Shown: positions 16,883 to 19,800 of the stretch, piece by piece
Numbering within the stretch: position 1 is the stretch's first letter
Layout of the letters: each line of letters starts with the position of its first letter
Assembly: GCA_000165345.1 (NCBI GenBank)
Contig: CM000430.1
Coordinates: 704,001 to 768,000, forward strand
Reading direction: 5' to 3'
Length of the DNA stretch: 64,000 bases
The notes under the pieces: model-generated
Seen by the model: the letters and a program-made list of their open reading frames with translations, nothing else
Told to the model about the DNA's origin: nothing
Database searches by the model: none
Program-made: the position numbers and the translations under genes

Positions 16883-19800
16883 TCAGCCTTTTTTCTTTAT
16901 TCTATACAATTTTGGAAGGTCAAGATAATGCTCTTTAATTATTGATAATGAGCTTCTTGGATATATGTTGAATTTCTTATTTAGTATTGAGGAATACTGT
17001 TGGTACTTTATTCTATAAGATATAAAGAAATCATCAATTCCAAGTGATTTATAACGTGAATTAAGGCAAGTAATAATTGAATCATACACAGCACATTTAA
17101 TTAGCAAATTCCATTGGTATTTATTAGGAAGTTGCTTTTTATACGAATAAATATTGTAGCAACATGCGTTTGAAATCCACTCCAAAACTTTGACTAAGAA
17201 TCTGGGATTAATAAACCCTTGGTGTATTTTCTTAATTCTTTTAAAGGTTGAAAGCAGTTTTAGTATACCAATATATACAACAATCACTATATTTGTGTAA
17301 ATCTATATGATAAAGAAAAGAATTTTCATAATAAACAAGAATGAAAATTAATTAATTAATTAATTGGTTGGTTATTTGTTGAATTATATTTAAAACTTAC
17401 CGTAAATAAAGAATTGATTTTACAATCATATAGCAATCCATTCTTGATTCTAAAATCAAAGTATCTTATTAATTTTATACCCAAAACAGACCACATATAA
17501 TTTGACTTTTGAAGGTTTTCAGATATCGTCGTCGACTTAAACCTGTGAAAATTTGAATAATTACTTGTAAATTGGTGCTTAGTTGTCAAGGTTACAGTAT
17601 CCATAACACATATGAATTCCAAATTCTTCCATGGGGAAACCATGCAATTCAAATAGCTGTACTCACTGGAAAACTTCATTCCTGTCCATGATACTTGTTT
17701 ATGGAACTGTTTTAAGGCTATCTTAGCCTTGTTAATCATTTCTTTTTCATTTTGGCAGTCCTTTTCACTTTTGTTGGTATTTATTCTCTTTTCCACTGGA
17801 CTGCTTGTGCACTCTGTCGAAGGTGGGAAGGAAGAAGAGGACGATGAGGAAGACGACGAAGAAGATGAAGAGGAAGATGAAGAGGAACAAGATGATGAAC
17901 AGGAAGAGGAAGGCGAAGATAGTAAAACATCATCCTCCTCAAGGATGATGATCTCATTATTGTGGTCAATCCAAGGAAAGTTAGAGTTGATTTTGTCCTT
18001 GGAAACGTTCGATCCCCATAGTTTTTGTATATAAAGTAACTTTAAGAACTTTTTGGCGGACTCCAAATCGGATGTGAGAAAAAGAAAATCGTCTACCCAT
18101 CTCAATAAGAGACTTTCTTGCTTATTGCTCTGAGAAGGACTTTCTTGATCATAACTTTTGAGATTGGCACGGATTTGGCAATTCTGGTTGTTGATATTAT
18201 TATTAAACTCTTCGGAAGGTTGCAGTAAAACACTTTTAGCATTAATATTATATTCTGATATTTCTAGTCTTCTTTTTTTACTTGTACTAGTATTATAAAT
18301 ATTTATCTCATTTTCTTTAAATTCTGGGTAACGGGATAATCCTGTCTCAAGATCATGTTGTGAAAATAAGTCTTTTTCAGTTGGATCAAGTAATTGTACT
18401 TTTTCTTGTTTAATTGGATTCAGAAATGATAAAGAAATGTAAGAGGAGGAAAAAAATGAATGTCCCAAAAGATTCTGGATTTCTGGATTTAGATCTAAGA
18501 AATTATAATAGAGACAACAAAGAATGTAAGAAATACTTGATCCTTGTGGAATTCCAAAATCTTGCTTAAATAAGCTTAGAAATCTTTTTCCAAATTTGAT
18601 AGAATTTCCAAGTTGTTTAGATTTTATTAGTCTTAAAGACTTTGAACATGTCCTAAGTCGAAAAAAGCTTGTGTTAAGGTGGATCTTAATGATCTCCTTG
18701 ACTAATTTCCAGTTTATCACACGTCTTGAATTTAAAAAAGTAAAGATTTCTGCTTTTTTTTGTCCCAAAATACTCAAATCCTTGTTTGATAAACAAGAAT
18801 TTTTAAGATTCCAAAGAAGTTCATCTAAATCTGGTCCTATAATCCTCTTAATTTTTGATTTGACGACTTTTTGATCTTCATCATGATCTTTCTCAAAAAT
18901 AGGTACCATATTTAGTTTTCCTTTTGAAGTAATAATACATGATCTCCCAAGCTCATCTTGGTAAGAGTCTCTATTCATATTATCAAAAGGCGGAATAATT
19001 GTTGTTTTACTTAAAGCCCTTGAATATAAGCTCAAAAGGGAAATTTCATTTGGAAGAGAAATTACATCCAAAAACTCAAAAATCTTGGACTTATTTATAT
19101 TTTCAAAACAGTTCACTAAATCTGCTTTAATAATATAAATCTTTACATGGGACATTTTTTTACCTTGATTTTGATAAAAATCTTCATTCATTTGAAATTG
19201 TTGTTTGTCTCTTCTATTCTTTATCCACCAATTCTTTATAATCTTATAAATATCTCCAAACTGTACAAGAGAAGCACCAAGATGATTCTTTCCTGTCATT
19301 CTTAATAGAAAAGATCTTAAAATCTTGGAAGGATAAAACAACATATTATTTGTTGATGGACGTCTTATATCTATAATTCTATTACTTGAAGGACGTCTCA
19401 TTACCTTATTAATTGGAGTAGTAGGTACCGATGATCCTGAATTTATTCCAATTCCTATATTATAATTACCAAATCCTAATCCCACTCCTAATCTTCCTGG
19501 TGGTGTCATAATCTGACAATTTTGGCTTGAAAATGATGTAAAATTCTTTCCTCCTATATTATTAATATGACCATAATTATGATTATTTCCTACAATACCG
19601 TTATTACCATTACTATTAAAGTAGTTATAATAGTAATTGTTATTAATCCAACTTGTTGGAAGATCTCCACCAGTCCAAACTGAATTACAATCACAAAAAC
19701 CAATCTTCTTCTTTTCTTCACAAGTGTGATCTCTTTCAAGATTTTGTTGAAGAATTTGTCCAGATCCAACTTTTGATAAATTTATTAATGGTCTTAAACC

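Follow-up and report, generated by a model that had tools for sequence, protein, structure and literature searches.

In characterised telomerase reverse transcriptases (TERTs), the thumb holds the DNA-RNA duplex and is required for processive repeat addition. The genes of Cryptosporidium, to which we turn here for their TERT, are mostly devoid of introns. Those introns that have been described in C. parvum are of the GT-AG type, with a mean length of 99 nt and a G+C content of 22 % (Isaza et al. 2015, PMC4637869), and the reannotation of C. parvum identified fourteen of the original "genes" as exons of flanking genes (PMC4637869). A two-exon structure of the TERT gene is already known from the annotation of three sister species: the same junction, in which ...T is followed by IY(T/A)NI..., is present in the GenBank models for C. 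meleagridis (POM83158.1, 1556 aa), for C. ubiquitum (1520 aa) and for one isolate of C. canis (1335 aa). A literature search for the gene structure of Cryptosporidium TERT found no paper on the subject.

The gene described below lies on the minus strand of a 64-kb stretch of DNA, hereafter called the window, in whose coordinates all features are given unless stated otherwise. The original prediction had joined the TERT reading frame by a splice to a short frame located downstream and had proposed a comparison with annotated Cryptosporidium orthologues; the splice is indeed present in the C. meleagridis, C. ubiquitum and C. canis models.

Identity and exon-intron structure of the gene

Judged by its sequence, the gene is a telomerase reverse transcriptase. 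Exon 1 (17401..21780, minus strand) begins with an ATG at 21780..21778, comprises 4380 nt or 1460 codons and ends with ...KINSLFT. It covers the N-terminal region, the RNA-binding domain, RT motifs T, 1, 2, A, B', C, D and E and the start of the C-terminal extension. The Pfam family Telomerase_RBD (PF12009) matches residues 455-609 (E=3.5e-20, 72.9 bits against a cut-off of 25), and the sequence matches of exon 1 in the PDB are to human TERT only (E=2.5e-6). The T motif, motifs 1/2, motif B' and the catalytic C/D block (LLLRWVDDFLFLT...AKKFL, with the C motif VDDFL) all align to the human enzyme: FYATEIEG faces FYVTETTF, RWVPKSKGLRPLINL faces RFIPKPDGLRPIVNM, GIPQGSSIS faces GIPQGSILS and LLLRWVDDFLFLT faces LLLRLVDDFLLVT. 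The Pfam scan of the window's TERT yielded no match to RVT_1. All of the nearest proteins in the database are TERTs from Cryptosporidium, ranging from C. meleagridis (89 % identity), chipmunk genotype I (75 %) and C. ubiquitum (66 %) down to C. andersoni (31 %). Together with the 136 of 139 exon-2 residues that recur in a C. hominis TU502 protein, the 89 % identity to C. meleagridis places the window in the C. parvum / C. hominis group, with C. parvum as the most probable species. An Rfam scan of the window, telomerase RNA families included, gave zero matches.

The open reading frame that contains exon 1 (21780..17356, minus strand) is listed as 1474 aa, a figure that counts its stop, and the unspliced product is hence 1473 aa long. 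This frame had been predicted to reach acg/GTAAGT exactly, and the sequence reads ...AAT TCT TTA TTT ACG followed by GTAAGT, which places the exon-intron boundary between 17401 and 17400, on a codon boundary. The 5' splice site GTAAGT (17395..17400, minus strand) is thus read directly after the Thr codon ACG. Retention of the intron would extend translation by 14 codons past the donor, encoding VSFKYNSTNNQPIN, up to an in-frame TAA (17356..17358, minus strand). The GT-AG intron itself (17303..17400, minus strand) measures 98 nt, is in phase 0 and contains stops in all three frames; its G+C content is 16 % as compared to 31 % in exon 1 and 27 % in exon 2. At the 3' splice site (17303..17322, minus strand) a pyrimidine-rich tract, TTCTTTTCTTTATCATAT, precedes the AG at 17304..17303, such that the intron ends with TTCTTTTCTTTATCATATAG. 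Apart from this terminal acceptor, the only AG in the 98-nt interval is the one within the donor GTAAGT. Several YTRAY-like TTAAT motifs, candidate branch-point sequences, can be read directly 40-55 nt 5' of the acceptor AG.

Exon 2 (16883..17302, minus strand) resumes in phase 0 at 17302 and comprises 139 codons plus a TGA at 16885..16883; it would supply most of the thumb, or C-terminal extension. Its translation opens with IYTNIVIVVYIGILKL... (at greater length, IYTNIVIVVYIGILKLLSTFKRIKKIH...) and closes with ...LYRIKKKG. The spliced product amounts to 1599 aa with a single terminal stop. About 98 bp, a pyrimidine tract, an AG and a continuation in phase 0 had been predicted; the interval is exactly 98 nt, the frame runs on from 17302, and all coordinates of the original prediction proved correct on re-reading the sequence.

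Over its six frames, the window has 0.0705 stops per codon, at which frequency an open stretch of 139 codons is expected by chance with P ~4e-5. GTAAGT occurs only 30 times in the 64 kb when both strands are counted. The low probability and the rarity of the donor motif together make chance an unlikely explanation of the two-exon pattern. It is very probable that the TERT gene consists of two coding exons and one canonical U2-type GT-AG intron of 98 nt in phase 0. The intron is presumably removed in vivo. Splicing would join ...KINSLFT to IYTNIVIVVYIGILKL... and generate a TERT of 1599 aa, in which the 139 residues of exon 2 would form the last part of the protein and most of the helical thumb.

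The intron across Cryptosporidium species

The orthologous loci of eight species, in which the 3' end of exon 1 and the 5' end of exon 2 were placed by tblastn, were compared with the window (n=9: window, C. meleagridis, chipmunk genotype I, C. ubiquitum, C. canis, C. felis, C. xiaoi, C. ryanae and C. andersoni). In all nine, GTAAGT...YAG directly follows the homologous Thr codon, and the predicted splice (donor after 17401, acceptor before 17302, phase 0) falls on the same codon boundary in the eight other Cryptosporidium species. The acceptor is TAG in the window and CAG in C. hominis, the latter deduced from the TU502 protein, in which MKILFFIIQ runs into IYTN. The intron ranges from 53 to 164 nt, with 98 nt in the window, 89 in C. 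meleagridis, 71 in chipmunk genotype I, 109 in C. ubiquitum, 53 in C. canis, 164 in C. felis, 70 in C. xiaoi, 84 in C. ryanae and 72 in C. andersoni; seven of these nine lengths are not multiples of three. In every species, homology in exon 2 begins with the codon that immediately follows the AG, and hence before any start that could be used.

Between the window and C. meleagridis, identity reaches 92 % over the final 300 nt of exon 1 and 96 % over exon 2, neither being gapped; in the intron it is 81 %, with 9 gapped positions. With chipmunk genotype I, identity is 55 % in the intron and 91 % in exon 2. Exon 2 is under purifying selection as judged from its substitution rates, with a dN of 0.018 versus a dS of 0.129 in the comparison with C. 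meleagridis, and 0.050 versus 0.325 in that with chipmunk genotype I. This is the pattern of conservation that a genuine, ancient intron between two coding exons should leave, and it is irreconcilable with an intergenic spacer between two genes. The intron site has probably been fixed since before the split between gastric and intestinal Cryptosporidium.

Gastric species possess a second intron within the thumb-coding exon (phase 1, GTAAGT...TTAG, 56 nt, at 6744..6799 of the C. andersoni locus), which is inserted between ...INPKFVL and KIFEWISQG. It is missing from the window and from intestinal species. The C. muris model CMU_003480 already includes this second, gastric-type splice.

An in-frame stop is encountered 3-15 codons into the intron in each of the nine species, and five near-identical public contigs, which may be genomic or transcript, retain the 98 nt. 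Both observations could be taken to mean that the intron, although real, is often retained or regulated, with a thumb-less TERT ending ...LFTVSFKYNSTNNQPIN acting as a telomerase on/off switch. Alternative splicing that disables TERT does occur in vertebrates, and such a scheme may coexist with the two-exon structure. However, any AT-rich intron should contain such early stops, which therefore carry no information. Moreover, apart from the splice signals, the sequence and the length of the intron diverge fast, which argues against functional elements within it. Frequent or regulated retention is accordingly an unlikely reading in our estimation. We attach very little probability to the idea that the intron is more than passive, namely that regulated retention, with its stop 14 codons in, produces a thumb-less, inactive TERT and thereby gates telomerase between proliferative and non-proliferative stages.

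An exact scan of metagenome contigs for the DNA of the spliced junction gave 0 matches and is uninformative. A homology search with the junction region returned exon-2-sized assembly ORFs only and zero transcript-derived spliced fragments, but as this search also missed known proteins containing the query, absence from its output means little.

The terminal exon and the thumb

The two-exon gene accounts for a small reading frame listed immediately downstream of TERT. This "134-aa ORF" (16883..17287) is the frame of exon 2 counted from a GTG five codons in, a start accepted only under the bacterial start-codon rule. Exon 2 contains neither a Met residue nor an ATG, and the codon directly upstream in frame is the TAG of the acceptor. 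Lacking a Met, it is not an ATG-started gene by itself. The "134-aa ORF" is therefore not a gene but the terminal TERT exon as it appears to a prokaryote-style ORF finder. It had been interpreted from the outset as a downstream TERT exon reported separately, and this interpretation holds: the ORF shares the frame of exon 2, and the position of the splice is kept in relatives.

Public annotation nevertheless contains entries that would fit an unspliced TERT ending at the TAA at 17356 and followed by an independent small gene. The terminal TERT exon is annotated as a separate hypothetical protein both in C. hominis TU502 (XP_667797.1, 148 aa) and in C. muris RN66 (CMU_003480, 134 aa), and five deposited TERT models (chipmunk genotype I, C. 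felis, C. xiaoi, C. ryanae and C. andersoni) run through the donor, with ...T followed by VS..., to stop a few codons further on. The exon-2 peptide of the window has 136 of its 139 residues in common with the TU502 protein. However, XP_667797.1 starts at an intronic ATG, which is in frame only because the TU502 acceptor is CAG, where the window has TAG. An independent gene is equally at odds with the absence of any ATG from exon 2, with the acceptor TAG as the preceding in-frame codon and with protein conservation that sets in exactly at the AG in nine of nine species, before any start could be used. In addition, exon 2 continues the alignment to the TERT thumb without a gap, its modelled fold resembles TERT thumbs (see below), and a TERT ending at the donor would be deprived of most of its thumb. 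Taken together, two separate genes are an extremely improbable arrangement, and we retain the two-exon TERT.

What the terminal exon encodes was addressed by profile, sequence and structure comparisons of the spliced C-terminus. The Pfam family TERT_C (PF21399) matches it across the junction with E=2e-4 and 22 bits, which is below the curated cut-off of 27 bits; TERT_C is the top family in seven of the nine spliced Cryptosporidium C-termini, likewise below the curated cut-off (best E=1e-4). The spliced junction had been predicted to reproduce the thumb block of human TERT. In line with this, HMMER aligns the human TERT thumb (5ugw) ungapped through the junction, NSLFT followed by IYTNIVIVVYIGILKLL, with E=0.07, and the alignment goes on to NPRFLVKVL in the window versus NPTFFLRVI in human TERT. 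None of the alignments extends to QW..L, another thumb landmark of the original prediction. The E-values of the spliced C-terminus against PDB sequences range from 0.07 to 0.7, and a profile of the nine C-termini (E=0.068) brings no gain over the single sequence. When a profile of the Cryptosporidium C-termini was compared to 1.84 billion representative proteins, only Cryptosporidium proteins and zero TERTs from outside the genus were recovered.

The best matches of a structure model of the spliced C-terminus are TERT thumbs. This model was built on the C. meleagridis sequence, 94 % identical to the C-terminus in the window, and has a mean pLDDT of 56.5, with residues 1-106 below 50. Exon 2 thus appears to code for most of the TERT thumb, a reading supported by sequence matches that are consistent, if weak alone, and with which the modelled fold agrees. 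The thumb is likely also needed for activity in the organism from which the window originates.

The conservation of the thumb residues bears in turn on the choice of the acceptor. In a second C. canis model, a downstream acceptor connects ...NSTDT with VLDWISSAC, so that the opening 39 residues of exon 2 are skipped, and one might imagine that such a junction is the one used. Yet the skipped part, IYTNIVI..YIG.LKLLSTFKRIKKIH.GFINP.FLVK, is the most conserved C-terminal block: its KRIKK, H, GFIN and F are invariant in the nine species, and its residues align to a human TERT thumb helix. In the window intron, furthermore, the sole AG after the donor is that at 17304..17303. Use of another acceptor is hardly credible in view of this evidence, and the junction of the two-exon model is kept in what follows.

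Insertions, annotation and comparison with known systems

Exon 1 carries a poly-Ser low-complexity tract, SSPSSSCSSSCSSSSSSSSSSSSSSSSSSS (17829..17919, minus strand), in the linker between motif D and motif E. TRF detects imperfect periods of 9, 12, 18 and 30 nt in this tract, a trinucleotide-type repeat, and the tract lies between motif D (WGSNVSKDK) and motif E (WTGMKF). The Ser run is 30 aa long in the window, 13 in chipmunk genotype I and 11 in C. meleagridis, and is missing in the six other species; the linker as a whole varies from 23 residues in C. andersoni up to 104 in the window. The original prediction had placed a poly-Ser insertion of roughly 40 residues between the two motifs. 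The placement is right, but the size is not, as the S-rich run comprises 30 residues. The tract is a recent lineage-specific low-complexity expansion and not a domain feature. A second insertion, long, of low complexity and rich in Asn, Gly and Tyr (…NNNYYYNYFNSNGNNGIVGNNHNYGHINNIGGKNF…GVGLGFGNYNIGIGINSG…), is found at about 19400..19750 (minus strand), corresponding to TERT residues of about 680-790. It separates RT motif 2 from motif A and differs in length from one Cryptosporidium orthologue to another.

Over 6 kb, the Logan contig SRR31305056 (13.7 kb) matches the window at 99.97 % identity. The two differ by one substitution at 21835, upstream of the TERT start, and by a 1-nt indel at 16719 in an A/T run of the 3' intergenic region, and by no other change. 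The window accordingly stands for a strain or species that has been widely sequenced. A length polymorphism of the poly-Ser tract had been considered as the origin of the 1472-aa ORF in this contig, as compared to 1474 aa in the window, and was rejected on account of these two differences.

The convergent neighbour of TERT is a gene of the SDA1 family, whose ORF (13643..16054, plus strand) likewise runs through a GTAAGT donor, at 15981. Its intron (15981..16501, plus strand) is 521 nt long, in phase 1, and ends with TTTTACAG; the last exon (16502..16692, plus strand) figures in the ORF track as a separate 61-aa ORF. The spliced SDA1 product has 840 aa and ends with ...GKKKRFRKR, the C. meleagridis model having 841 aa. 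The SDA1 stop lies 190 nt from the TERT stop. Both C. canis TERTs bear the name 'SDA1-like protein', apparently taken from this neighbour.

The biology of the locus is routine, that of a eukaryotic gene with one intron. The added value is one of curation and concerns the five TERT models truncated at the donor, the C. canis model with the wrong acceptor and the two exons listed as hypothetical proteins. Comparisons of apicomplexan TERT domains, the design of constructs and that of inhibitors should use the spliced form of 1599 aa.

With respect to known systems, the window intron (98 nt, 16 % G+C) is typical of C. parvum introns in both size and composition (PMC4637869). The resemblance to the human TERT thumb (PDB 5ugw; 7qxa, 7bg9) is far more distant, with a sequence identity of only ~9-13 %. 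The closest counterparts are the TERTs of C. meleagridis, C. ubiquitum and C. canis, orthologues at 89 %, 66 % and 54 % identity, which have two exons as in the window. Their genomic surroundings are also the same: a UCH hydrolase lies upstream, and the convergent SDA1 gene is found downstream. These orthologues differ in their introns of 89, 109 and 53 nt, respectively, as opposed to 98 in the window, and in a poly-Ser tract that is shorter or missing.
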